Source of the DNA: a virus
Lineage: Duplodnaviria > Heunggongvirae > Uroviricota > Caudoviricetes
Length of the DNA stretch: 35,219 nucleotides
Strand: one strand, 5' to 3'
IMG/VR virus record: IMGVR_UViG_2548876867_000017
Span: 1-35,219 of that record
Made by a program: the position numbers and the translations under genes. The notes below the pieces were generated by a model. The model saw only the letters and a program-made list of their open reading frames with translations. It had not been told where the DNA came from and searched no databases. Positions 1 to 35,219 of the stretch are shown here, in pieces; position 1 is the stretch's first letter, and every line of letters begins with the position of its first letter.

Positions 1-273
1 ATGAACATCGGCAAAGCAATCATCAACTACGCAGCACGTCGCAACATGGACATTACCTTGATTGGCGATGAGACCGTAGCGTTCTGGGAAGCGGATAACG
101 ATTGTGAATGGATGTTCTCCTACATGATTGGTAATGATGGTTTCCTCCACTTTAAAGGCAATGTGTATCTGCCGCAGGAGATTAAAGAAGAATTACCGGC
201 GTGCATCGATACAGACAAGAAGCTGAAAGAAGTAATCAACTTTATCGCTAAAGAGTTTATCAGCAAGAAGTAA
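1..273 (+). CDS. hypothetical protein (may be 5-prime truncated by window edge)
   Basis: ORF of 90 aa beginning at window position 1; no recognisable motif; co-oriented with downstream small genes. Confidence 0.45.
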   Translation: MNIGKAIINYAARRNMDITLIGDETVAFWEADNDCEWMFSYMIGNDGFLHFKGNVYLPQEIKEELPACIDTDKKLKEVINFIAKEFISKK

Positions 274-1615: not shown

Positions 1616-1651
1616 GCCCCTATCGTTATAATACACGGTAGGGGCGTTTTT
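1616..1651 (+). terminator. rho-independent terminator (loop contains TATAAT-like hexamer)
   Basis: GCCCCTA..TAGGGGC stem followed by GTTTTT after the 1354..1599 stop; loop TTATAATACA could double as a -10 element for the recombinase gene. Confidence 0.5.
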
Positions 1652-1664
1652 GTTTGGAAATGGT

Positions 1665-3344
1665 ATGAAAACTAAACTGTATTCGTATATTCGCTTCTCA
1701 TCTATGCGTCAGAATGATGGTTCGAGTTATGAACGGCAAATCAGGATGGCGAGAGAGGTTGCGGCAAAGTATGACCTTGAACTGGTAAATGATTATCAGG
1801 ATCTGGGTGTATCTGCGTTTAAGGGTGCTAACTCTAAAACAGGGGCGCTATCTCGTTTCCTTGATGCAATTGGTAGATCCGTTCCTGTTGGTAGCTGGCT
1901 ATTCATTGAAAACTTGGACCGTTTATCCCGTGCCGATATTGTCAGTGCGCAGGAGTTATTCCTTTCAATAATCCGTAGGGGGATAACCATTGTTACTGGC
2001 ATGGATAACAAGATCTACTCGCTGGATACTGTTACCGCTAACCCGATGGACCTGATGTTCTCCATCCTTTTATTCATCCGTGGTAATGAGGAAAGCCAGA
2101 CTAAGCGCAATCGTACTAACTCAAGCGCACTGATTAAGATTAAAGCCCATCAAGAAAATCCCCAGAATCCGGCAGTGGCAATCGAGGAAGTTGGAAAGAA
2201 TATGTGGTGGACTGATACCACTTCCGGTTATGTGCTGCCTCATCCGGTGTACTTCCCTGTTGTTCAGGAGATTGTGGAATTGCGGAAGAATGGACGTTCA
2301 ACCGCCGAAATACTGGATCACCTTAACGAGACTTATACACCGCCACCAGCGGTTAGCAACAAGAAGCATTCAAAATGGTCACGGGCAATGGTTGAAAGGT
2401 TGTTCCATACCCGCGCTTTGATTGGTATCAAGGAAGTCTCTGTAGATGGTGTTAATTATGAGTTAAAGGATTATTACCCTCGTGTTATTGATGATGCTAC
2501 GTTCTATCACCTTAAGAAAAATATTGGTGCTAGAGCATGGAACTTTGGAGACAAGGAAGAAGTTAAACCGATCCCCCTGCTTAGTGGTATTGGCCTATTG
2601 AAATGTGATCATTGCGGTTGCGCTATGGTTAAAGTGAAGGGAACGAACAAACGTTCTGACCAGTATCGTTATACATGTGATGCGACCCGTTCACGTAGAC
2701 TTGATTGTGAGCATCCAAACTGGAGTTTTCGAGGCGACCAATTAGAGAAAGCTGTATTGCAATTGCTGGCTGATAAAATCTGGATTGCTGAGGACAAGGC
2801 TAATCCGGTTCCGGCGTTGAAAGTACAGGTTGATGAAATATCACGCAAGATTGATAACCTGATTGCCCTTTCTGCTATGACAGGAGCAACGAAGGAGTTA
2901 GCCGATCAGATTACTACCCTCAATAGCGAGCGTGAAACACTCTACAATCAGATCAAGATGGCAGAAGAGGAAATGTATTCTGTGGACTCTCAAGGCTGGG
3001 AGAAGCTCGCAGAATTTGATTTAGAAGATGTTTATAACGAGGAACGACTAAAGGTCCGGTTTAAGATTAAGCAAGCTCTAAAGCGGATCGGGTGTAGCAG
3101 GATTGACAGAAACAAAAACTTGTTTGTACTGGAATACATCGATGGAAAAACCCAGAGAGTTGTAATAGAAAATTCAAGAGGAACGAGGAAAGGCCGGATC
3201 TTCATTGATTTGAAAACTATCAATGATAGGCAGATTCTGGAGAGCAACGGGCTTGTTCTGCATCCATGTTTAGACATGCTGACAGATAAGAACTGGAAAC
3301 CAGAAGAGGAAATACCAGGTCCATTACAGGAATTTGGAATTTAA
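1665..3344 (+). CDS. large serine recombinase (integrase/resolvase family)
   Basis: N-terminal catalytic motif YSYIRFSSMRQ with conserved Ser, DRLSR motif, Cys-rich zinc-ribbon segment (CDHCGC..CDATRSRRLDCEH), C-terminal coiled coil; start moved from TTG 1650 to ATG 1665. Confidence 0.85.
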   Translation: MKTKLYSYIRFSSMRQNDGSSYERQIRMAREVAAKYDLELVNDYQDLGVSAFKGANSKTGALSRFLDAIGRSVPVGSWLFIENLDRLSRADIVSAQELFLSIIRRGITIVTGMDNKIYSLDTVTANPMDLMFSILLFIRGNEESQTKRNRTNSSALIKIKAHQENPQNPAVAIEEVGKNMWWTDTTSGYVLPHPVYFPVVQEIVELRKNGRSTAEILDHLNETYTPPPAVSNKKHSKWSRAMVERLFHTRALIGIKEVSVDGVNYELKDYYPRVIDDATFYHLKKNIGARAWNFGDKEEVKPIPLLSGIGLLKCDHCGCAMVKVKGTNKRSDQYRYTCDATRSRRLDCEHPNWSFRGDQLEKAVLQLLADKIWIAEDKANPVPALKVQVDEISRKIDNLIALSAMTGATKELADQITTLNSERETLYNQIKMAEEEMYSVDSQGWEKLAEFDLEDVYNEERLKVRFKIKQALKRIGCSRIDRNKNLFVLEYIDGKTQRVVIENSRGTRKGRIFIDLKTINDRQILESNGLVLHPCLDMLTDKNWKPEEEIPGPLQEFGI

Positions 3345-3417: not shown

Positions 3418-4416
3418 TTAAAGAGCCTCTAAAGGGCTTAAATCGAGTTCTAAGTCTTCCGGTGTTAAATCAGCTAACGGTGCATTCATCCACTGCGATA
3501 AATCTCGTTCTATGTCTTCATCACTAATGTAGTTGTTCAGATTGATTGCGTTGGTATCATCAAAATACATTGGCTTAGATGGGTTGGTGTGGATGTATTC
3601 ATTGATGAATGATTTAACATCTTTCAGCTTGCTAATCGGTAGCGTTTCTGTGAATCCGCTATTCATTACCTTACGTGGGATTTTCTTGCCCTGAATATTC
3701 TTTTTAATCCCCATTTCTAAATCACCAGCTTTCCATCCAATGTTAAACAAATGTGAGCATTCAAAGGTGATTTTCTCGCTGGTGTGCTTCTGGTGTTCTC
3801 TTACCCGTTGCATCGGATCTTTGCGAGTGGTAATTCCATATTTGAAAAACTTCTCGCCAACACGAATTAGATAAAAGTGCATAGGGCGCTGTGCAAACTT
3901 GTTTCTGATAACCTGTTTTCTACCATTCTGAATTGATTTAAGTACACCCCTAACCAAAGGGCATGTTAACCCGCCTTGTCTGCGGTTATTGTGTAAATCA
4001 CCTTTCTTGTGAATCTTTCCGTGGCACTTACAACGAAGAATTAGTTTAGTGTCAACACCCTGATAAGGTTCAGCCAGACCTAACACATCCCACCCTATCG
4101 GCTTGTAGAACTTGCGAGCGTTTTCTAAGTGTTCTTCTTCGGTAAATCTAAACTTCTTCTTAGGCGGTGATACTCTATCTTTGCCAGTAAACTGACCAGT
4201 TAGAACATGACTAATACATGGCGTTTTAACCTTTCCGTTAACTTCTATGCAAACTTTGGTGTTCTGGAATGGTTTCTTTACAGGAAGCACAAAACCACTG
4301 TATAACCACCCATGCACTTGACAAACTTTAATGATTCTGGTTTCATATTCGACCGGAGGGGTCGCACGTTTGCTTTTTGCGGTAAATTCGATATCCTTTG
4401 CTAAAGTAGTATTCAT
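3418..4416 (-). CDS. putative homing endonuclease-like protein with GIY-YIG-related (T5orf172-like) motif
   Basis: Internal segment HFYLIRVGEKFFKYGITTRKDPMQRVREH resembles the T5orf172/GIY-YIG-like signature; Cys/His cluster CKCHGKIHKKGDLH; RBS GAGGA upstream. Confidence 0.45.
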   Translation of the reverse strand: MNTTLAKDIEFTAKSKRATPPVEYETRIIKVCQVHGWLYSGFVLPVKKPFQNTKVCIEVNGKVKTPCISHVLTGQFTGKDRVSPPKKKFRFTEEEHLENARKFYKPIGWDVLGLAEPYQGVDTKLILRCKCHGKIHKKGDLHNNRRQGGLTCPLVRGVLKSIQNGRKQVIRNKFAQRPMHFYLIRVGEKFFKYGITTRKDPMQRVREHQKHTSEKITFECSHLFNIGWKAGDLEMGIKKNIQGKKIPRKVMNSGFTETLPISKLKDVKSFINEYIHTNPSKPMYFDDTNAINLNNYISDEDIERDLSQWMNAPLADLTPEDLELDLSPLEAL

Positions 4417-5189: not shown

Positions 5190-5537
5190 TTAGATCATTT
5201 CGAAGATATAACCAATAAAGCGCATACCCTTGATATAATAAGGAGCAGTGCCTACACACACCGCGCGTGCATCGCCCAGACAGTTAAAGCTATAAGGATT
5301 AACCACATCAACTTCTTGTCCTACACGAAAACGATACTTAGGACGTTTAGCCAATGTAGCGACACAAAACACGGTCCCTTTTTCATGATCGCGGATACAT
5401 TCTTTATATTGTTTATGTTTAACTCTCTTCGCCTCAAAATCATGTGTCATAGATTCTGGGCTAATGCCATTAATAAAAATACCGGAAAGCTGATCGACCG
5501 GATAAGTAGGAAATTCAGTGAAAATATTTTTAGCCAT
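5190..5537 (-). CDS. hypothetical protein
   Basis: 115 aa ORF with RBS GGGGGT; tightly packed in the leftward operon. Confidence 0.55.
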   Translation of the reverse strand: MAKNIFTEFPTYPVDQLSGIFINGISPESMTHDFEAKRVKHKQYKECIRDHEKGTVFCVATLAKRPKYRFRVGQEVDVVNPYSFNCLGDARAVCVGTAPYYIKGMRFIGYIFEMI

Positions 5538-5575
5538 GTTATACCCCCATAAGTTTCTATGAGGGTATTTATGGA

Positions 5576-11817: not shown

Positions 11818-11891
11818 ATAGGAAAGCCCTCAAAAATAAAGAATCTCTCCTATATTTATTGAGGGCTTTAGTGTGCCATTTAGTTTCAGTA

Positions 11892-13155: not shown

Positions 13156-15585
13156 TTACATCTTACGACGCTGAACGTCTTCTATCGCCTGAGCAACAAA
13201 CTTAGCGTGACGTTTGATAGCATCCATGACCATCTTGTCTGAGCTATTAACGTTGCCGTTAATGTTCAAAGGCGCATTAACTTCAATCGGCTGAGAGTTA
13301 CCACCGCCTGATTTTTGAGCCGCAAGGAAGTCTTTCAAATCACCGTTAGTACGCTGATCAACTACTCGTTCACCCTTATCAAGCAACCATGTACCCTCAC
13401 GAGGGATATTATCGATACCATCATGAGCCATACCGCTAACGTTAGTAGACTTGATGTTTGCGATGTTCCCCATGTTCTGAGAAACAGCCAATGCAGCAGC
13501 AGCGATTTTTTGACCTGTGGTTACGTTGGTCGGATCGTTCCATGCATCGGTAGCAGCCGTCCACATGTTCACCGTCGCTTGTCCGATAGAGAATGCTTTA
13601 TGAGCATTGAAAGCCATCTGCATAGCTTTAGTGTTTTCCTGCCCGAAGAGAGTCATTGCAGCAGCAAAACCGCCGTACATATCATCAGCTATTGACTGGC
13701 GAGCATCAGCATATTTCTTCTCAATTGCAGCCATTCGTTTTTGATGGTTTTCATTGAGTTTTTCTAATTCTTCCATCCGTTTAGCCGGATCGGTGATCCC
13801 ATCAATCTTGAGTTTATCGGTCTTATAATCTTGTTCCGCTTCCGATTTCTCTTTATCGATTGCATTAAATTTAGCAAACGGATTATTTGAGTCTTGATAA
13901 TCATAACCACTAGTTAATTGATTGGTTTTATAACCATCCATTCCCTGTAAAGAATTTTCAATCTGAGAATAGTTTTGCTCGGTATCGTTCACACGACGCA
14001 TATATTCTTCGTAGGAGATAGCTTTACCATCAAGTAACCGTTTATGGCTTTCTAGCTCGTTGTCCCTGATTTGTTGCAATTGTGTTAAAGCATTCAGAGC
14101 ATCAATCGGATCAGCACCCAACATCATTTTATAAACGTTTTCAGTATTCTGATCGATTAGCGCCTGGCGTTTCGCGGCTGCGTCTTCCTGAGAGATTAAG
14201 CCCAGAGCTAACGCGTCGTTCACATCTTTTAAGCTGTTTTGCAACTGGCTATTTTGAGAAGTGATAGACGCTGCAACTTGCCCTTGCAATTTAACATCAA
14301 GTGCATTCAGTCGCTTGATTGCATCCTCGCGTGCTTTCTGTGCTTTTTCTGCGGCTTCCTTAGCCTTTTTAGCTGCCTCTTCCGCTTTCTTTTTGGCTTC
14401 TTCCTCGGCTTTCTTCTCGTTGCCAGACTTACCCAATGAAGCTGGTCGAGTTGGTGTAGTCGGGATAGTCAAATCACGGTTAGGATCTGCCTTGCGGGTT
14501 AGATGTTCCCCGTTATCGACAACAATCAGAGAGCCATTTTTCTTATAAGAATCACCAAAACGTTTCTTAAATCCTTCAACATCAAAGCCAGCAGTACGAG
14601 GATCAACACCAGCACCACGGATCGCGGCCTTTTCCCAATCTGCCAGATTATTCCAACGCTTTTCTTTATTGTACTTGTCAATAATCTTTTGAGCGTCTTT
14701 ATGGTTGGCGTTAAGAATACCGCCAGTTGCGGTCTTGCCTTCTTTATTCAGTCGGTCTAATGCCCTGAATAGAGAACTCTTTTCCCAATCAATATTAAAC
14801 CATTCAAATAACCAGTTTAAGCTATCAACCAAAGGACCAGTAATGGTCATGCCGACACCTTTCAGGTTATTTTCCAGCTTATTGATATTTTGAGAAAATT
14901 TATCATATTTTTTAGCGTTTTCTTCGGTGACGTTAACAGATTGATTCTGAATAGCGATCATCGCCTCTTGAGCACTATTATATTTCTCAAGCTGGCTGGT
15001 CATATGGCTTGAATCACTGGCTAAAGATTCCATCATGAACTTGATTTCAGCCATTGATTTTCCGGCTTTCTTCATGTCATAGAACACTTGGATCGCCGCT
15101 TTCATACCACCTTGCGGATCGGTCATGAAGTGAGCATAGTTTTCTAACTTAAGGCCAACCGATTCTAAATCATCGGCAATACCACCACCGTTAGCCCATG
15201 CATCACCCATCTTGTCTAAGGTGTCTTTGTTGATATCACCAAATTTTTCAACTGTTAAGCCAGTGCCAGAAAATTCCTTTTCCAGTCTTTGAAGGGATTC
15301 AATCGATAGTCCGGTCGCCTTAGATACTTCTGAATACTGTTTAACGTATTCCGCGCCAGCTTTAGCGGCTGCAAAAACTGCGGTCGCAACTAAGCCGATA
15401 CCACCAGCAGCCAAACCAGCAGAGCCAGCGATCCCACGAAGAGATCCAGTCAAACCAGACAAACCACCGCCAAAATCGATATTACTTGCCTTTTCAGACA
15501 AACTATCTAGAAGGTTAGCGGCTTCATTGGTACTTCTCCTTAGACCTTTATTATCCCCTTCTATTGTTACTATATGTTTTGTCAT
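13156..15585 (-). CDS. tail tape measure protein
   Basis: 809 aa, long alpha-helical/coiled-coil regions, Lys/Glu/Ala-rich segment, Gly-rich N-terminal segment; follows G/T chaperone pair; RBS AAGGGG. Confidence 0.85.
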   Translation of the reverse strand: MTKHIVTIEGDNKGLRRSTNEAANLLDSLSEKASNIDFGGGLSGLTGSLRGIAGSAGLAAGGIGLVATAVFAAAKAGAEYVKQYSEVSKATGLSIESLQRLEKEFSGTGLTVEKFGDINKDTLDKMGDAWANGGGIADDLESVGLKLENYAHFMTDPQGGMKAAIQVFYDMKKAGKSMAEIKFMMESLASDSSHMTSQLEKYNSAQEAMIAIQNQSVNVTEENAKKYDKFSQNINKLENNLKGVGMTITGPLVDSLNWLFEWFNIDWEKSSLFRALDRLNKEGKTATGGILNANHKDAQKIIDKYNKEKRWNNLADWEKAAIRGAGVDPRTAGFDVEGFKKRFGDSYKKNGSLIVVDNGEHLTRKADPNRDLTIPTTPTRPASLGKSGNEKKAEEEAKKKAEEAAKKAKEAAEKAQKAREDAIKRLNALDVKLQGQVAASITSQNSQLQNSLKDVNDALALGLISQEDAAAKRQALIDQNTENVYKMMLGADPIDALNALTQLQQIRDNELESHKRLLDGKAISYEEYMRRVNDTEQNYSQIENSLQGMDGYKTNQLTSGYDYQDSNNPFAKFNAIDKEKSEAEQDYKTDKLKIDGITDPAKRMEELEKLNENHQKRMAAIEKKYADARQSIADDMYGGFAAAMTLFGQENTKAMQMAFNAHKAFSIGQATVNMWTAATDAWNDPTNVTTGQKIAAAALAVSQNMGNIANIKSTNVSGMAHDGIDNIPREGTWLLDKGERVVDQRTNGDLKDFLAAQKSGGGNSQPIEVNAPLNINGNVNSSDKMVMDAIKRHAKFVAQAIEDVQRRKM

Positions 15586-15596
15586 AAATTACCCCT

Positions 15597-15938
15597 TTAA
15601 CCGCTTCTGAGTTTCTCAAGCAAAGATGGATCAAACATGTTCAGCATTGCCGCTTTACGTTCTTCTTCTTTCTTGCGTGCAATTTCTTCCAGTTCTTCTT
15701 TAGTTTTAAAGAGTTTTTCTTCTCTAATTAATTGGAATTGGCTAGGCTTGAGTTTGCGTGCAGTTTCGCGTGTCATTCCTTGCGACGTCATATACATGGA
15801 ATATTGCAACATCGCATTCTGCATATCATGAAACGCGGGGCTTTGTGGTTCTAAGTAGGTGTCGAAAATGTATAACTTCCAAAACAGAGTGATTGGCATA
15901 TTATCCATTTCATCTTTACTAAGCCCCGATCTCATCAT
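15597..15938 (-). CDS. tail assembly chaperone T segment (probably expressed as G-T fusion by -1 frameshift)
   Basis: In -1 frame relative to upstream chaperone ORF; frame is open from 15983; no convincing RBS before its own ATG. Confidence 0.55.
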   Translation of the reverse strand: MMRSGLSKDEMDNMPITLFWKLYIFDTYLEPQSPAFHDMQNAMLQYSMYMTSQGMTRETARKLKPSQFQLIREEKLFKTKEELEEIARKKEEERKAAMLNMFDPSLLEKLRSG

Positions 15939-15967
15939 TTGCCGGAAATAGAAATTCAGAAGCGGGT

Positions 15968-16276
15968 TTACTTTACCTCGTTTTCAATTACCGCCGCATC
16001 TTGCATCAATGACGCTTGAGCAACCAAACCGATTAATTCACTTCGGACGTTAGTATACAGTGCCTTAACTTGTTCAATAGATTCAAATACTGGCTTACCA
16101 TCTTCATCTTCAATACAACGAAGAATCGAACGTTCATCACGGTCTTCTTTATCGGTATTGAAAACATGTTCATTAAATTCTTTTACTGACATAGGGCGAG
16201 CATAGAACGTAAATCCACCGATGGTTACAGATTCGCGTTTCGGAGAGAGTGCGGCTAACATTTCATTAATATTCAT
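15968..16276 (-). CDS. tail assembly chaperone (gpG-like)
   Basis: 102 aa acidic protein between tail tube and tape measure genes; RBS AAGAGGAAA. Confidence 0.65.
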   Translation of the reverse strand: MNINEMLAALSPKRESVTIGGFTFYARPMSVKEFNEHVFNTDKEDRDERSILRCIEDEDGKPVFESIEQVKALYTNVRSELIGLVAQASLMQDAAVIENEVK

Positions 16277-22578: not shown

Positions 22579-22852
22579 GTGTACCCCCTGCACGAGCAAT
22601 AAAGCAATCAGAAGTATTATCACCATTGCGCTTAACGTATTGAACTTTGAAGCGTTCACCGTCTACAATGACAACATCACCCTGATTTAAGTCTCCCTCA
22701 CGACAAAATAGAAATTCTGATTCTGTAATTACCCCTTGTTCGTCGGTAGTAGTAATTTCATGGTAAGCACGAATTGATTTACCACCTTCCACCGAAAATA
22801 CAGGAGCACTTTTAAACATTCTTGATAATTGTGATTCTGATAATTTGAACAT
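22562..22852 (-). CDS. hypothetical head completion / neck protein
   Basis: 96 aa; first gene after the capsid terminator; RBS AAGGGGG. Confidence 0.45.
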   Translation of the reverse strand: MFKLSESQLSRMFKSAPVFSVEGGKSIRAYHEITTTDEQGVITESEFLFCREGDLNQGDVVIVDGERFKVQYVKRNGDNTSDCFIARAGGTHARYR

Positions 22853-22882
22853 AGTTACCCCCTTTATGGAGTATTTACATAC

Positions 22883-27184: not shown

Positions 27185-29089
27185 TTAGAACGATGTTACC
27201 CAGCTACGGCCTCTATTTGGGCGTCTGACGATGTTTTGACGTTGTGGTCGTGTGATTGGCTTAGTTTCTTCTATTTGCTCGTTAGATTGCGATTTAGGAG
27301 CTTTTACGGGTTCTTCGACAACACGGTTTAAGCTGTCTTTCATTGCAATGAGTTTATCCCATGACATTTTTGAAAGGACGTAGCGAGAAGCCGCTGTAGC
27401 ATACACGGCGCAGTCGAGCGCCTCGTTCCTAACGCCTGGGTTCTTTACCCATCTCACGCCAGTAGTAGTACGCTTGACAGATTCACTTAAAAGCTGATCG
27501 AGATAATCATCAGGAACGGTGTCTGATATTTCTAAGGCAATATGAGGATTATCTTTCAGGTTCCTAGCCAACATTTCACGAAATGCAGTTTTACCCACGT
27601 TAACACCCAACATAAGCAATTCATGACCACCTGTGCGGGTAGGTTTAACCGGAATGATCGGAGCGTTACCAGCAGAACTACCTTTGATAGCGTGTAAGTT
27701 CTTCCACTTGCCGCAAATACGGTATCCAGCTTGAGTGAATCGACCGTTCGATGTATCAAGGAAGCTGGCGAGCATAGGAACACGATCACCCGATACAGTA
27801 GTAAATTTGGTTTTATGGAAGTTGATTAATCTATCCCATACAGGTGATTCATATCGTTCACAGTTATGATCGTAAAAGCTGCGGTGATCCAGAATATAAA
27901 TCTTATCCTTTGCCACGCCCATGATCGTAGTTTCTGCGCGATCTAATTGCTGGTCAGTACCCGCACACAAGAAAATCACGTCATCAGGGATATTCTCGAT
28001 AGAAACATCTGTTTTGAGTTGTTCCAGTTCATTTGCTTCTACTGCCGTGTCCTGATCGTCGTATACCTTGCCTAACACGGTGTTAAAAAAGGATTGTAAA
28101 TCAAAGGATTGCCACGCATGACTAAAATCAACCACACAAGCGCGGATCGTACTGAAAGGTGAATACAGACGACTGATCCAGAATCCTGCTACTTCACTTT
28201 CACGGGTTGCTCTCCACTCGCCTTGCGCTACTGCCCTGATTCGTTCCCCTTCTGTCCATGCGTTCTTACAGTGGGGGCAAATATAACGAGCGGTATCAGG
28301 ATCGGGTAAGTTCTTACCATCAATGTTACGCCATTCAAATTGAACGTTTTCCCACTCGATCACCTGGTGTTCCCCGCAATGAGGACACGGAACAAAAAAC
28401 ATACGCATATCACTTGATAACCATTGCTGGTTAATGATTCCCAGCTTATTGGTTGGGGTACTAGAAACAATCAATCGAGCTTCATCACCAAAGGTAGTTA
28501 AACGGTTTGCAGTTAGTGCCACCGGACAACCTTCTTCGGTGATTGTTGCTGCGTCGCATTCGTCTACAATCCCTAACTTGGCAGTACGCCCACGCAAACT
28601 TGAAGGACTGGTCAAAGAAACCATGTAAAGGAAATGGTTTGTTTTTAGCTGAATCTGGTTATTGTTGTTTACCGCATTACGATCATTCTTATCTGTTACC
28701 ACTTCCTGTAATGCCGGACATGCTTCAATAGAAGGACGGATCTTAGTATTCAAGTACATAGCCACTTCTTTAGCGGTACTTTGCCCGATAATGATATTGC
28801 ACGGATCGTTTGCCATCTGGTTAAACATGATCCCTGACATGATGGTCGTCTTTCCGATCTGCGCACTCGTACAAAAAACGTACTTCTTTTTCTTCTCAAG
28901 GAAAGGAGCATCAATCATGCCTTTCTGAAATGACAGTAATTTAACTTTATCCCCAGCACGAGGACCATCGACTAGCGTTAGATTCGCTTCGCACCATTCA
29001 GAAGGAAGGAGCTTAGGCGGTGGCGTAATATATTTGGCTGCATTTTTAAGAATCTTTTTTAATTTTGCCTTATTAGAAATCAGTTTCAT
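27185..29089 (-). CDS. terminase large subunit (lambda gpA-like)
   Basis: 634 aa; motifs [28 protein letters not shown] and [14 protein letters not shown] correspond to lambda gpA segments as I recall them; Walker A-like AQIGKT; RBS GAGGG. Confidence 0.85.
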
Positions 29090-29176
29090 GTAATTACCCT
29101 CATTACGAAATATGAAGGTATTTATTAAGTTGTTGATTTTTTGATAAATACGGGTATTAAGATTTAAGGGGGTTGT

Positions 29177-29782
29177 ATGCTAATTGATCAGCAACAAAGA
29201 GATGAATTAGAATTAGCCTTTTCTTGTTGTACCGATCATGAATATCGTTTGCCAGTTAAGCACCATCACAAGAAGACTGATTACACAACATCTGGCTTTA
29301 GTCGTGAGGAAGCTAAACAGATTTTAATCGAGTTGTATCGCGATCATGGGTATACCGATATTCATAACTTCTTTAAGAAGCATCGCACATCACAGACAGA
29401 GTTTCAGCGAGTCCGTGAGTGGTTTGATTTTGACATTAAGCGATTCTATCGAGTAGATGACGGTCCTATCTATCGGTTGCAGTGGAAGCCGATCCGAGAA
29501 GTGCTTAAACAGAAGAGATTGAATCATGCCATTACACGCTATCGTAATGTGGCTTTCAAGAAAGGCTATGGTGATACAAGGGAATTGTTTGTAGAACTCG
29601 CTAACGTGCGATATAGCCATTATTACAGGAATCCTAAAGAGTTCTTCGAAGTGCTGCGCAAGGTTGATATAAGTCGGGGTACATACTATTCACGGTTGAA
29701 GAAGTACGGGATTAAGGCAGAGTTTTTTATGTCAGTTGACGATGGAGAACTTTTTCCGATAAAATGTAAGTCCTCTAAATAA
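29177..29782 (+). CDS. protein with C-terminal resolvase/transposase-type HTH motif (putative transcription regulator)
   Basis: 201 aa; C-terminal [16 protein letters not shown] fits the HTH_7/HTH_23 pattern; RBS AAGGGGG; divergent from the terminase operon. Confidence 0.5.
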
Positions 29783-29816
29783 AGGTGAACATTCACTTTA
29801 ATTTGGAGAAATGACT

Positions 29817-30044
29817 ATGACTACTAAAGCTACTCGCGGTCGTCCTGCCCGTTTTAACGCTGAACAGATGGCTGATATTGCCTACGCTTATTATACAGCG
29901 GATCGTGGTAAGGAAGCGAAAGAACAGATTCTTAGTGAACATGGGATCTCAATCGCCCAATTCTATAAGAATATGAAGAAGTTAGACATTAAATTCTATG
30001 TTCAGATCGGTGATGGTCAGATCGTAGAAGCAACAGGTTTTTGA
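29817..30044 (+). CDS. small HTH protein (paralog family with 33212..33391)
   Basis: Start taken at second ATG (better SD spacing); RGRPARF..ADIAYAYY..ISIAQFYKNMKKLDIKFYVQI parallels the 33212 product. Confidence 0.5.
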   Translation: MTTKATRGRPARFNAEQMADIAYAYYTADRGKEAKEQILSEHGISIAQFYKNMKKLDIKFYVQIGDGQIVEATGF

Positions 30045-30052
30045 TTCTCTTT

Positions 30053-30076
30053 GCCACTCTTCGGAGTGGCTTTTTT
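30053..30076 (+). terminator. rho-independent terminator
   Basis: GCCACTC-TTCG-GAGTGGC hairpin followed by TTTTTT after stop of 29817..30044. Confidence 0.7.
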
Positions 30077-30091
30077 GTATCTGTAGGTATG

Positions 30092-30115
30092 AAAAAGCCC
30101 CACACTAGGCGAGGC
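30092..30115 (-). terminator. intrinsic terminator for the leftward Rha-like operon
   Basis: Hairpin GCCTCGCC..GTGGGGC on minus strand followed by UUUUU, just after the 30125 stop. Confidence 0.5.
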
Positions 30116-30124
30116 TAAAAATTA

Positions 30125-30955
30125 TTACAGTCCGAAGACTTCCAGTGATCCAACATTCTGACGGAGACGTTCAGCCGCTTTATTTTGAATCAGAATAGTG
30201 TTGTTCGGCTTAGGAAGATTCAGAGTTGCTTTTTGTTCTTCTTCCAAAACACCCAATTCAACCAGCACCGGAAGCACATCAACAGTAAACTCAAGTTGGT
30301 AGTGAGCATTCATGCGGCAGAAAGAGAGAGAAGAATCATTAGCAACATACCCACACGGCTTGTTATTTTCATCATAGACGCGCTCGATGTATCCAGCAGT
30401 ACGTAAGGCCGTCAGTGCTTCTTTAACCTTCGTAGCGCCCTTTTTAGCGCCTAACAGACGGGTCATTGAATGGCTATCTACAGACTTACGAACATGAAGT
30501 TCAATCAGTTGTTTGTTTTCGCGAGTTTTCTTTAACGCCAGTTCGATCCAGTCTGTTTCTTCAAAGTGTTCATATGGATTAACCGGAACATTAGCTTTCC
30601 CTTCTTTCATCAAACGCCATTCTTTAGCAATTTTGAAGCGAAGCGGTGCATCGTATCCCATAACCAGAGTATTACAGAGATCTTCGTCCAGTTCATACAT
30701 CGGGCGAGATTGATTATTCTTATCAAAATATGAAGATTCTACAAAATACCCCAGCGCAAAATTGCGCCCGGCTAATTCGCTTCCTTTTTCAAGAGAATCA
30801 ATCATGCGACGAAAATCACGCATAACATCCTTATGATTCTTTCCGGTCAATTCAGCAATCTGACGGGTAGACATGGTCAGCGGTTTGGTGTTATCAACAA
30901 CCAGAGACACGGAAGCAGTTTTAACAGCAGTATTCATAGTAGTAACAGTATTCAT
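30125..30955 (-). CDS. Rha-family / antirepressor-like regulatory protein
   Basis: N-terminal TMSTRQIAELTGKNHKDVMRDFRRMID fits the Rha/ORF6N DNA-binding pattern; 276 aa; RBS AAGGGG. Confidence 0.55.
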   Translation of the reverse strand: MNTVTTMNTAVKTASVSLVVDNTKPLTMSTRQIAELTGKNHKDVMRDFRRMIDSLEKGSELAGRNFALGYFVESSYFDKNNQSRPMYELDEDLCNTLVMGYDAPLRFKIAKEWRLMKEGKANVPVNPYEHFEETDWIELALKKTRENKQLIELHVRKSVDSHSMTRLLGAKKGATKVKEALTALRTAGYIERVYDENNKPCGYVANDSSLSFCRMNAHYQLEFTVDVLPVLVELGVLEEEQKATLNLPKPNNTILIQNKAAERLRQNVGSLEVFGL

Positions 30956-31377: not shown

Positions 31378-31433
31378 GTTACATCCTCTTTACAAATCTA
31401 GGTCAAATATAATAAAAGTTGTCAAGTGCGATA

Positions 31434-31462
31434 ATCATAAAAAAGTCATAAATTTTTGTCAA
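31434..31462 (-). promoter_or_regulatory. sigma70-like promoter driving leftward genes
   Basis: On minus strand TTGACA (31462..31457), 17 bp spacer, TATGAT (31439..31434); the -35 is half of a TGTCAA-6nt-TTGACA inverted repeat. Confidence 0.5.
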
Positions 31463-31497
31463 TATACCTTGACAAGACGCCAAAGGGTTGACCTAAC

Positions 31498-31947: not shown

Positions 31948-32524
31948 AGTGGTATCCTCTAAAAGAAAGTGAATCAAGTAAGTTCACTATTATTTATAAA
32001 GAGAAAATTCTTGTTATTATGAAAGGTGATTGTATTCAGTCGGGCAAAGCCCTCCTTCATGATTTGATTAAATCATCATCAAAACGAAGAAGTATCTTTA
32101 GAATATAAGAATCTTTCTTTTGGAGAAATAATAATCAGGAAGCAATTTAGCAACCGAAGGTTGCAATCCCGAAGGGATACCAATACCTTTCTAGAAAGTG
32201 ATTGTTACTCACTTCGTTCGTTTACTAGAATCAGTTAGTAACTAGTATTAAATCCCTTTCTAAGAAAATCCTTTCAAAAGCGAGTGAACGCCGTAGGCGT
32301 GAACGTGAGCGAAGCGAACTATCCAATCCCTTTCGAATCCTGCTTGCAGGTCTTAGAAGGTGTTGATGGGCGCTTCGCGCACGGCTACGCCGTATTCTTT
32401 TTGCGAGATCTTTCTTGAACGTAGTGAGAGAAAACGAGCAAAAAGGAGAACGTTAGTTCGAATTTTATATTCTATGGTCTGTGGGGTGAAATGTCTTTCA
32501 AGATCATACGCTTATGAGATTGAA

Positions 32525-32648
32525 GTGTAGGGTTAGTGTAGGTGTGTAGGTTTCATAGTGTAGGTTTGAGGGTGTTATAGTGTAGGTTTACTGACTAGTG
32601 TAGTGTAGGCCAATCCCTTTAAAGCGTAGGTTTGTAGTGTAGGTTTTT
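32525..32648. repeat. iteron-like array of about 8 copies of (A)GTGTAGGTTT
   Basis: Direct repeats at about 32525, 32536, 32544, 32558, 32580, 32603, 32626, 32637, spaced 8-23 bp, in an ORF-free region and followed by an AT-rich tract. Confidence 0.6.
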
Positions 32649-32760: not shown

Positions 32761-32840
32761 AGGTTATAAAGGTTGATAATCGTTATCCGCCATTTTCACA
32801 CAAAAATTTTGATAGTCATTTCTCGCTTAGGTCAAGTGCA

Positions 32841-32869
32841 TTGACAACTGTCAAGGATTATTTTATACT
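32841..32869 (+). promoter_or_regulatory. near-consensus sigma70 promoter for rightward genes
   Basis: TTGACA (32841-32846), 17 bp spacer, TATACT (32864-32869); -35 is part of palindrome TTGACA-AC-TGTCAA. Confidence 0.6.
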
Positions 32870-33211
32870 TTTTCTCATTGGTAGGGGTTGAAATTTTCGA
32901 AACAATCCCCATATTGATGATAAACAAGATTTTTTCGTGTATAAATACATGCATGAAATGATTGTTCACTTCTGAAAATCCCCTGATTCACTGTTAACAC
33001 ACACAGCACTGGTTAAACACACAGTGCTTTTTCGATTGAATAATGTACGAATTGATTAATTATTAATCTTCTCTTTAGCAATTCGTGCTCCCACTGATCA
33101 GATATACAGTGGTTTTGCAGGGTTTTCTGAAATGACTTTTATAAATAGAAGTATCGAGGGCGAAAAGCTCTTTTTATTGTCCTTATTAATCCACATTTGA
33201 GGAATCTACTT

Positions 33212-33391
33212 ATGGCTAGACCTGTTAAGTTTACTCGTGAAATGATTGTTGATATTGCTAAACGCTTTTATGGCGATACTGAACGAGGCGGCGAGAATTT
33301 CTTTAAGAAGGAAGGAATTGATAGAAGCGGATTCTATAAGCTAATGAAGAAATACGAAATTCAGATAAAGATTAACGTTCAAGTTTGTTAA
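33212..33391 (+). CDS. small HTH protein (paralog of 29817..30044)
   Basis: Start at ATG 33212 with RBS GAGGAA; ARPVKF..VDIAKRFYG..IDRSGFYKLMKKYEIQIKINVQ parallels the 29817 product. Confidence 0.5.
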   Translation: MARPVKFTREMIVDIAKRFYGDTERGGENFFKKEGIDRSGFYKLMKKYEIQIKINVQVC

Positions 33392-33433
33392 TCCACTTTC
33401 ACTGAGAATTATACGATGGCTTTAAAAATAAAA

Positions 33434-33461
33434 AGCCTCCCTTGTTGCAGCAAAGGAGGCT
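33434..33461 (-). terminator. minus-oriented intrinsic terminator inside rightward gene block
   Basis: AGCCTCC..GGAGGCT hairpin preceded on plus strand by an A-run (U-run on minus transcript); no T-run on plus side. Confidence 0.4.
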
Positions 33462-33507
33462 TGAAATGAACAATTAAAACTAACACAGCATTCAGGAGTA
33501 TTTATAA

Positions 33508-34503
33508 ATGAAAAATTCTAAGCGCATCACCTTCAACCTGTTTATTAAATCCAACGGCAAACTGAACATTACCGTCATGGAAGGTAAAGCAAGCAAACAA
33601 GACAAATCCTTTGAAGTAGTATCCGGTAAGACTCTGACCGAAATGCGTCAGAATGCTGGCATCAAAGACGGTGCTGAATGGCAGATCACTAACCGTTTCG
33701 ACAAACGTCACGTTAAACCTACACTGGTAGAAGGTGAATCCGTTTATTGCTTCGCTCGTGCTGTTAAAGCCGATGAAACTTACTATCTCGCTGTTGTTAA
33801 AACTGCTTCCGGCTTCCGTGCTGTAATGCATCACAAGAGCAAGCGTAACGAATACGGCGTAGAGACCCAGGAAGTCGCAAAACGCTTCCGTACTGTTGCT
33901 ACCGAATCCACTGTAAAGGATGTTTCTGGTACTGTTAACACCGTTAAAGGCGGTTCCTTCTACAACCACGCATTACAGGTTACTTCCTCCTTCTTCTGCA
34001 AAAAAGAAGCACAGAAAGAAGTTGCTCCGGTAGTAGTTGAAGAAGTTAAAGAAGAAGTTGCAGTGGTTGAATCTTCCGAAGTTGAAGCACTGAAAGCACG
34101 CATTGCTGAACTGGAAGCTGAAAACGCATCTCTGAAAGCTGAACTGGCAGCACAGGAAACCACTTTCGAAGTAGCAGCGGTTGAAGTTGAAGCAGTTGAA
34201 GAAAAATCCATTGATGAAGAACTGGAAGAACTCCTTAACTATCGCTGGGGTAACGGTGAAGAAGTAGAACAAGAAGTTGCTCCGGTAGTTGTTCCGGTTG
34301 AAGTTGAAGAAGAATCCGCACCAGTTACCAACTTTGAAACACTGCGCAATAACTTTATGGCTAAATTCAAAACTAGCTGGGAAGATACCGAAGAAGAACA
34401 AGAAGAGATTGATGTAAACGAAGACGAGATCCGCGAAGCACACATGGCACTTCATGACGCTATCTACGACACCAACTACAGCGCCTACGCATACGCAGCT
34501 TAA
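33508..34503 (+). CDS. highly expressed acidic protein with repeat-rich coiled-coil C-terminal half
   Basis: 331 aa; RBS AGGAG; strong bias to highly-expressed E. coli-type codons; basic N-terminal domain, then repeated EVAPVVV(E/P)VE(E) units and leucine-zipper-like EALKARIAELEAENASLKAEL. Confidence 0.6.
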   Translation: MKNSKRITFNLFIKSNGKLNITVMEGKASKQDKSFEVVSGKTLTEMRQNAGIKDGAEWQITNRFDKRHVKPTLVEGESVYCFARAVKADETYYLAVVKTASGFRAVMHHKSKRNEYGVETQEVAKRFRTVATESTVKDVSGTVNTVKGGSFYNHALQVTSSFFCKKEAQKEVAPVVVEEVKEEVAVVESSEVEALKARIAELEAENASLKAELAAQETTFEVAAVEVEAVEEKSIDEELEELLNYRWGNGEEVEQEVAPVVVPVEVEEESAPVTNFETLRNNFMAKFKTSWEDTEEEQEEIDVNEDEIREAHMALHDAIYDTNYSAYAYAA

Positions 34504-35045: not shown

Positions 35046-35219
35046 TTATTTAGTATCCTTTTTACAGCAACTAAAAAGAATAAACAAAAAGAAGCATACC
35101 CAGCCGTAAGGCGTACCGATTAGAAATTTGAAAAACACCACCAGCGATATAAAAATCAATTTAATGCCAGCGACGATAGTCAAAAACAGCAGAGTAGCAA
35201 AGTAGACAAAAAGATCCAT
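35046..35219 (-). CDS. small hydrophobic membrane protein (possibly truncated at window edge)
   Basis: Minus-strand ATG at 35219; translation MDLFVYFATLLFLTIVAGIKLIFISLVVFFKFLIGTPYGWVCFFLFILFSCCKKDTK has two hydrophobic helices; below ORF-track cutoff. Confidence 0.3.
   Translation of the reverse strand: MDLFVYFATLLFLTIVAGIKLIFISLVVFFKFLIGTPYGWVCFFLFILFSCCKKDTK

Follow-up and report, generated by a model that had tools for sequence, protein, structure and literature searches.

The locus raises a simple question: what do three small genes with helix-turn-helix (HTH) signatures do in a temperate prophage? The window, by which we mean the whole 35.2-kb stretch analysed (35,219 nt), is most of a lambda-like siphovirus prophage. 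An initial annotation of this DNA had placed three such open reading frames in it; all three are present, each with a good Shine-Dalgarno sequence, and we refer to them as A, B and C.

29177..29782, plus strand: gene A, 201 aa (open reading frame, Shine-Dalgarno sequence, internal duplication, AlphaFold model, orthologs)
29817..30044, plus strand: gene B, 75 aa (open reading frame, Shine-Dalgarno sequence, AlphaFold model)
33212..33391, plus strand: gene C, 59 aa (open reading frame, Shine-Dalgarno sequence, paralogy to B), leading the rightward operon upstream of the gene for a 331-aa protein
27185-29089, minus strand: gpA-type large terminase gene (TerL)
1650-3344: large serine recombinase (integrase) gene
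32521-32646: iteron array, about eight copies of TAGTGTAGGTTT
33508-34503: gene for the 331-aa acidic protein

Of 5426 complete E. coli genomes, 63 carry close copies of the prophage (about 90% DNA identity), all chromosomal with no plasmid-borne copy among them, and no sequenced phage matching it was found. The element interrupts hicB in E. coli H2 (NZ_CP028733); strain DEC5A is another natural lysogen. The insertion site is the hicB gene of a hicAB toxin-antitoxin locus (window 1-273 and 35046-35219; L002 18566-18685; L001 30235-30546), and the window ends at exact gene boundaries slightly inside the attachment sites. The left-end genes encode membrane, secreted or unknown proteins. The long late operon, on the minus strand, begins with TerL, continues with the portal, protease-capsid fusion, tail and lysis genes, and reaches position 3418. 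To the right of TerL come A and B on the plus strand, followed on the minus strand by a Rha-family gene, a 110-aa gene and the gene for a 159-aa acidic protein. Past this Rha group lies 1.2 kb of non-coding DNA with the iteron array, and the rightmost plus-strand genes are C, the 331-aa protein gene and a gene for an 80-aa coiled-coil protein.

Orthologs of A, B and C occur only in E. coli, Shigella, Salmonella and Proteus, every one annotated as hypothetical, and the family is confined to one lineage of Enterobacterales prophages. None turned up among 50,697 phage records or, over two scans, in 185,579 species-representative genomes, and we found no literature on the prophage or on these proteins. 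Within the lineage all three are core genes, retained in 37-39 of 39 related loci. A defence or moron island was considered and rejected: PADLOC gave no match for A, B, C or their neighbours, and A and B belong to the core genes of the lineage.

The three proteins form a paralog family, as had been proposed. B and C are 35% identical (BLASTP E=1e-9), and A also matches C at two places, residues 134-187 (E=2e-6) and residues 41-88 (E=0.003), which identifies A as a tandem duplication of the module. The three proteins therefore hold four modules, two of them in A, a duplication that the initial annotation had missed.

29303..29479, plus strand: module 1 of A, with helices at residues 43-57, 62-68 and 73-83 and strands at 87-93 and 98-101
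29579..29758, plus strand: module 2 of A, with helices at residues 135-147, 153-162 and 167-176 and strands at 181-187 and 193-194, bearing the 14-residue signature

The two A modules align consistently with the B and C families from end to end. The alignment confirms a common C-terminal signature, better written as [FY]-[YH]-[KS]-x-[LM]-K-K-[YL]-x-I, and the N-terminal basic RPxxF motif described for B and C, where the RP-x-[RK]-F arm is invariant in both families (R9 and P10 invariant, F13 in at least 90%). The features conserved throughout are the R-P-x-[RK]-F arm, a glutamate three residues on, a G-I pair starting the third helix, and [FY]-[YH]-K-x-[LM]-K-K. C has a MARPVKF arm and the HTH of its paralogs with a shorter tail. 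In B, the sequence of helices 2 and 3, EHGISIAQFYK, is near-invariant across E. coli, Salmonella and Proteus.

Each module has the same layout: a basic RGRP/RP arm leads into three helices and then a beta-hairpin. For B, AlphaFold (pLDDT 79) predicts that the RGRP arm is basic and disordered, with helices at 15-27, 32-41 and 46-55 and a hairpin at 61-64 and 68-71; for A (pLDDT 71) it predicts a helix at the N-terminus followed by two HTH/beta-hairpin modules (about 43-101 and 135-194), which a low-confidence linker joins. Scans of A, B and C against Pfam, PHROGs and NCBIfam gave no significant match, and a PDB sequence search with the family gave nothing significant. No Pfam HTH family was listed for the three even at E<=1, and the gathering thresholds of HTH_7 (PF02796) and allied families were not reached; the B ortholog of the more distant relative L041 (IMGVR_UViG_2823530352_000002) came closest to HTH_Tnp_1, HTH_7 and HTH_23, at E=0.02-0.045 at best. 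A family profile run against 1.84 billion representative proteins returned 29 matches, about eight clusters of which are true family members. Among those examined, the others are mostly proteins with four to seven HTH_7, HTH_23, HTH_28 or HTH_Tnp_1 repeats (Pfam). In hhalign, the family (A3) matched these HTH_7-type repeats with 96.2% probability (E=2.5e-9), the RGRP arm aligning to their GRP arm, so that the HTH resemblance noted earlier is backed by profile search, with sensitive methods needed to see it.

These comparisons support the assignment of the A, B and C modules to a predicted resolvase/transposase-type three-helix HTH fold, one that no curated family claims. Related HTH domains are found at the C-terminus of serine resolvases and invertases such as Hin, gamma-delta and Tn3 (HTH_7) and in IS3/IS630-type transposases (HTH_Tnp_1, HTH_23 and HTH_28). 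Unlike those enzymes, A, B and C stand alone, with no catalytic domain, carry an extra C-terminal beta-hairpin, occur as a tandem pair in A, and fall below all Pfam thresholds. Other phage regulator folds fit less well. No profile match to Cro/CI-type HTH domains (HTH_3 and related) was found for the three proteins, nor, in Pfam and PHROGs, to excisionase or MerR-like winged helices (HTH_17, Xis); the models of A and B have three helices ahead of the hairpin, unlike the two-helix-plus-wing topology of Xis/MerR. They also lack a match to PF08765, the Mor/C late-activator family, and B and C have no N-terminal dimerisation domain. Small phage HTH proteins are a well-known class, to which A, B and C thus add a new family of narrow distribution.

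Whether such a fold binds DNA at all has to be weighed here. The three-helix bundle might instead bind RNA polymerase or another protein, as an appropriator or anti-repressor; the fold matches are weak and generic, and the Rha/Ant-type neighbour hints at anti-repressor circuitry. However, resolvase-type HTH domains have a minor-groove arm to which the conserved basic RGRP/RP arm can be aligned, helix 3 is basic, and the remote homologs bear curated DNA-binding HTH domains. We consider a role away from DNA highly improbable. Each module would instead insert its AT-hook-like RGRP/RP arm into the minor groove and, together with the resolvase/transposase-type HTH and the beta-hairpin, bind DNA sequence-specifically.

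A and B lie next to the terminase gene. They do diverge from TerL, which is on the minus strand, across a spacer of 87 bp. Relatives in E. coli, Salmonella and Proteus, to as low as about 50% protein identity, all have the order TerL (minus), A, B (plus), and the spacer, at 85-88 bp, is more conserved than the flanking genes. The region to the right of B is variable: Rha is replaced in Proteus, one Salmonella type has an extra 347-aa gene, and the 110-aa gene varies as well. In L041, Rha abuts TerL, while A, B, C and a homolog of the 331-aa protein form a single rightward array past the iterons, with A-B 3 kb from TerL. Adjacency to the terminase gene is therefore not universal, since L041 has A-B in the early rightward operon. 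Because A and TerL each retain their upstream sequence box in this other arrangement, A-B appears to be a trans-acting, self-contained movable cassette with no cis tie to the terminase. The neighbouring gene is indeed Rha-like (Phage_pRha, E=1e-17), but it is missing from the Proteus relative and so is not a fixed partner.

The constant spacer beside TerL invites a packaging explanation, in which A, B or both would be accessory factors, either a small terminase or a cos-site-binding protein, in partnership with the gpA-type terminase encoded alongside. Upstream of TerL the window has no small terminase gene, an HTH of the A/B type is found in many small terminases (PF20901 and PF10668 are among the matches of the repeat proteins), and the L041 B protein has a weak match to phrog_24579 (E=0.005). 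The lambda Nu1-type small terminase is likewise an HTH protein encoded beside a gpA-type large terminase. However, the lineage already has a genuine Nu1-like small terminase gene elsewhere, encoding 184 aa near attR, about 0.3 kb past the right end of the window (L001 28310-28864, minus strand). It matches phrog_57 at E=3e-11 in the E. coli H2 copy and 1e-23 in the L041 copy, which also matches Phage_Nu1 (E=1e-5). Given this separate gene, we rejected A or B as the small terminase itself, and no TerS-family profile in Pfam or PHROGs matches A, B or C. A and B also lie on the strand opposite TerL and hence are not co-transcribed with it, in L041 they sit 3 kb away in the early operon, and their models contain neither the oligomerisation core typical of small terminases nor, in comparison with Nu1, a gpA-binding region. 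A packaging role is in our judgement very unlikely.

Two observations on the terminase genes stand apart from this question. The two genes are unusually split, with about 6.5 kb of regulatory and replication genes between them. The closest TerL in an isolate, at 44%, is that of Escherichia phage DCP80 (PQ671644.1; L008, L065 and L066), whose record combines T4-like genes, several of them doubled (rIIA, exonuclease subunits, spackle), with a structural block of siphovirus type, in which eight same-strand ATAAATA boxes occur over 9.5 kb. This suggests that the record is chimeric or misassembled, and A, B and C are absent from DCP80; it thus offers no informative comparison.

The serine integrase raises a different possibility for the two smallest proteins, that B or C is its recombination directionality factor (excisionase). 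No such factor is recognisable in the prophage, although it uses a large serine recombinase. In several serine-integrase phages the directionality factors are small basic proteins of 58-75 aa, and the L041 B protein has a weak match to an excisionase PHROG (E=0.005). Against this, the family has three paralogs and not one, the integrase gene adjoins none of them, and none has significant similarity to known directionality factors. To our knowledge, the known directionality factors of serine integrases bind integrase and not DNA, a mode of action that also counts against B or C. We regard an excisionase function as extremely unlikely.

The transcriptional setting of the genes was also examined. 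The island had been described as bracketed by terminators, which holds to the right of B, where two terminators converge. To the left is a divergent control region with nothing comparable.

30053..30076, plus strand: intrinsic terminator closing the A-B unit (hairpin 30053-30070)
30090..30116, minus strand: convergent terminator closing the Rha operon (hairpin 30116-30096)
32841..32869, plus strand: near-consensus sigma-70 promoter-like site, TTGACA-17-TATACT, its -35 inside the perfect palindrome TTGACAACTGTCAA
33141..33180, plus strand: TATAAATAG box 64 nt ahead of C, with a small conserved GC hairpin and a T-run after it

As had been stated, C is the first open reading frame after a strong rightward promoter, the near-consensus TTGACA-17-TATACT site at 32841-32869. 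Its start lies 340 nt downstream, past a leader with two hairpin/T-run elements, and the arrangement of TATAAATAG and hairpin is retained in relatives with compensatory changes in the stem. The near-consensus sigma-70 promoters, rightward at 32841 and leftward at 31462, have common TTGAC[AC] half-sites (32828-32855 and 31399-31470). The palindrome TTGACAACTGTCAA is retained in some, not all, Salmonella and E. coli relatives and is a candidate operator. At the start of the 331-aa gene there is a leftward TATAAATAC box (33423-33505, minus strand), with a strong terminator about 35 nt on (33462-33433); together they predict a transcript of about 65 nt, antisense to that gene's leader. The TATAAATAC box is retained in the other five relatives examined, Proteus excepted, and the box-plus-terminator layout can also be read in L041.

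The iterons upstream of C had been offered as a possible target of the family, and comparison of relatives argues against this. Every relative has an iteron array, with differing sequences: TAGTGTAGG, TTCAGGGGCAA, CTAGGGATG or TTCAAATGCTACTTT. Across 29 loci and with no exception, TAGTGTAGG iterons accompany the 331-aa protein type, and TTCAGGGGCAA and CTAGGGATG accompany a replacement protein; lineages with TTCAGGGGCAA, CTAGGGATG or TTCAAATGCTACTTT iterons use a different protein in place of the 331-aa one. Both main iteron types occur alongside every B type and alongside the most frequent C type, which is about 54% identical to the C of the window, and the variation of A is independent of which iterons are present. 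Iteron type in the 29 loci thus co-varies with the 331-aa protein and not with A, B or C, which assigns the iterons to the 331-aa protein. That protein and the iterons probably constitute a plasmid-like replication initiator and origin.

A candidate target is a short box, (T)ATAAATA(C), that recurs in front of the operons of the prophage.

29144..29151, plus strand: ATAAATAC box of A, about 25 nt ahead of its start codon; relatives, L041 among them, conserve it
29118..29125, minus strand: mirror-image ATAAATAC box of TerL, 28 nt upstream of the TerL start codon
944, 4451, 5566, 11853, 13131, 16877, 22871, 29119, 29144, 31026, 31991, 32941, 33141 and 33499: positions of the box in the window

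All 13 ATAAATA occurrences in the 35-kb window are intergenic, each aimed at a downstream transcription unit (12 at a gene and one at a short antisense RNA), and a -35 partner is missing from every one. The distance to a start codon is 15-40 nt for seven of them, compared with a maximum of 4/14 for composition-matched permutations of the motif. The ATAAATAC class marks A, TerL, the lysis gene and o96, at 18-28 nt upstream of their start codons: ATAAATAC lies 27 nt before the first lysis gene (start 5537), and GTAAATAC lies 18 nt before the gene starting at 22852, directly past the capsid-gene terminator. B has a weaker TAAATAA variant just upstream. The box fronts the packaging/head, head-completion/tail and lysis operons and essentially all operons (14 units); since early and accessory genes have it upstream as well, its presence at A-B is no sign that they are late genes. 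The ATAAATAC boxes are conserved in the Salmonella and L041 relatives and, in the Proteus relative, at TerL and A. L041 keeps the box at both TerL and A though the two are far apart, and the box is invariant even there, where the A and B helices differ. The boxes at 11853 and 13131 sit in the loops of terminator-like hairpins.

The TerL-A spacer contains GTATTTAT ... ATAAATAC, and we considered whether GTATTTAT-N18-ATAAATAC might be one palindromic operator, bound by a dimer or by the two modules of A. This was rejected: the spacing of the arms is 2, 18 or 26 bp among relatives and each arm keeps a constant 25-29 nt to its own start codon, so the arms are independent units. GTATTTAT alone is only marginally enriched (5 observed, 2.2 expected).

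In the leaders of the TerL, lysis and head-completion genes, the 3' end of the box also base-pairs with the Shine-Dalgarno sequence in a predicted hairpin (29087-29126, 5535-5573 and 22850-22879, all minus strand; -10.5, -15.3 and -6.8 kcal/mol; z = -3.7, -5.1 and -1.8, respectively), with compensatory changes between the genes and in L041 (6557-6596, minus strand). The A leader has no such sequestering hairpin. An RNA starting just past the box would lack the 5' arm, so that only read-through RNA would be translationally masked.

The common box shows putative co-regulation of these operons, or a common recognition factor, and co-occurrence makes A, B and C candidates for that factor. The box could be an unusual -10 element used by the host polymerase together with another factor. 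Rha apart, the prophage has no further gene that can be recognised as repressor- or activator-like, and its HTH proteins are only A, B, C, Rha and the variable 110-aa gene product. As near-sole HTH proteins, A, B and C are most economically assigned to the regulation of the phage's own promoters. Because the box in front of A-B also fronts the packaging/head, head-completion/tail and lysis operons, control of these promoters is the likeliest role.

We therefore propose A, B and C as trans-acting transcription regulators of the prophage, with activation favoured. What we infer is that the proteins bind DNA, that they target the box and in which direction they regulate; we give the proposal an even chance. 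Under it, A-B would be a self-contained unit of ATAAATAC box, A, B and terminator, placed head-to-head with the terminase operon or within the early operon, and would control, probably activate, the -35-less box promoters, its own among them. C, as first product of the early rightward operon, may have a Cro/Cox-like early role. The putative recognition helix of B is near-invariant across genera, as is the box, which counts for the box as the target. That A-B itself carries the box makes positive feedback possible and counts for activation, as do the tolerance of A as a nonsense allele in L041, where it has an in-frame TGA within module 1, and the use of the cassette in either position. The nonsense allele as a sign of a lytic role was set aside as weak, since A is intact in 38 of the 39 related loci. 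The absence of a direct match to a curated HTH family counts against a regulator. The initial annotation had spoken of late-gene activators or repressor-like regulators; regulators are still the most reasonable reading, these being the only recognisable candidates besides Rha, and the iteron target, universal terminase adjacency and a fixed Rha partner fall away.

The sign of regulation might also be the reverse. A, possibly with B, could be the maintenance repressor, with A-B expressed in the lysogen and its product acting on the boxes or on the TTGACAnnTGTCAA palindrome to silence phage promoters. No CI-like repressor is recognisable elsewhere in the prophage, the A-B island is transcribed against both flanking operons and ends in its own terminator, and A, at about 200 aa, has two predicted DNA-binding modules. 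The C1 repressor of phage P1 has dispersed asymmetric operators before many operons, a precedent for a repressor acting at many operons. Relative to the prophage of E. coli H2, C and, from codon 14 on, B have been exchanged as sharp cassettes (about 29856-30330 for B and 33113-33468 for C, 55-75% identity), like immunity genes, and the surrounding DNA, including the entire 1.1-kb region upstream of C, is 96-100% identical. Among relatives that swap these cassettes, the long upstream region keeps 98-100% identity; this would also suit immunity-type repressors. However, relatives have conserved putative recognition helices, which would leave the family unable to confer heteroimmunity. The promoter of A is of the box type found at lytic operons, not a distinct constitutive sigma-70 promoter. 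In L041, A-B is co-oriented with early genes, and the element is still resident in a genome-derived contig despite the interrupted A. Repression by A is unlikely on this evidence.

A stronger form of the activator proposal would make A, B and C the dedicated recognition and activation factors of a -35-less, T4-late-like promoter class before essentially every operon (14 units), with the two-module A and the single-module B and C dividing early, late and self-regulatory duties. The box is identical to the T4-like late promoter consensus (PMC1524935 and related papers). T4-type late promoters (TATAAATA) are read by gp55 with gp33 and the sliding clamp, and the operons here are likewise preceded by (T)ATAAATA(C) without a -35. 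In contrast to T4, this is a temperate lambda-like siphovirus and the box is a putative promoter; no gp55- or gp33-like protein was recognised in the prophage. We consider this stronger form quite unlikely. If it were true, a phage-specific system of small AT-hook-plus-HTH proteins would stand in for a gp55-type sigma factor, and the family would be considerably more interesting.

Less demanding parallels exist. The Mor and C proteins of phage Mu are likewise small phage HTH proteins that switch on several dispersed promoters without a good -35, and the Mor HTH belongs to the same broad class, as a Mor model matches the repeat protein P0085. In contrast, the three proteins studied here have no PF08765 match, Mor and C bind upstream dyads at about -43 whereas here the -10-like box is the only common element, and activation is proposed. 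Like lambda Cro, P2 Cox and 186 Apl, the prophage C protein is a small (59 aa) HTH product of the first gene after a near-consensus early promoter, and it is exchanged between relatives as a discrete cassette. Unlike them, it has three helices and a basic arm rather than a Cro or Cox fold and is not homologous.

By themselves, A, B and C would be one more uncharacterised small phage HTH family. They are, however, almost the sole candidate regulators in a prophage lineage of E. coli, Shigella, Salmonella and Proteus with no recognisable CI, Cro, Q or late activator. In this lineage a conserved T4-late-like box stands at every operon. Knowing the targets of A, B and C would show how the group is switched between lysis and lysogeny and how its late genes are controlled, and could reveal a new way to drive -10-only promoters.

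Two minor features of the element were also seen. No Rfam family matched the window at the gathering threshold; within the 1.2-kb non-coding region, a long hairpin followed by a terminator-like T-run (32290-32405; arms 32296-32316 and 32371-32391), also without an Rfam match, is conserved in sequence in L041 (9260-9310) and is a possible small RNA. L041 itself carries a reverse transcriptase-TIR fusion gene (RVT_1 and TIR_2; 14465-16174) adjoining the small terminase gene, which is probably anti-phage defence cargo.
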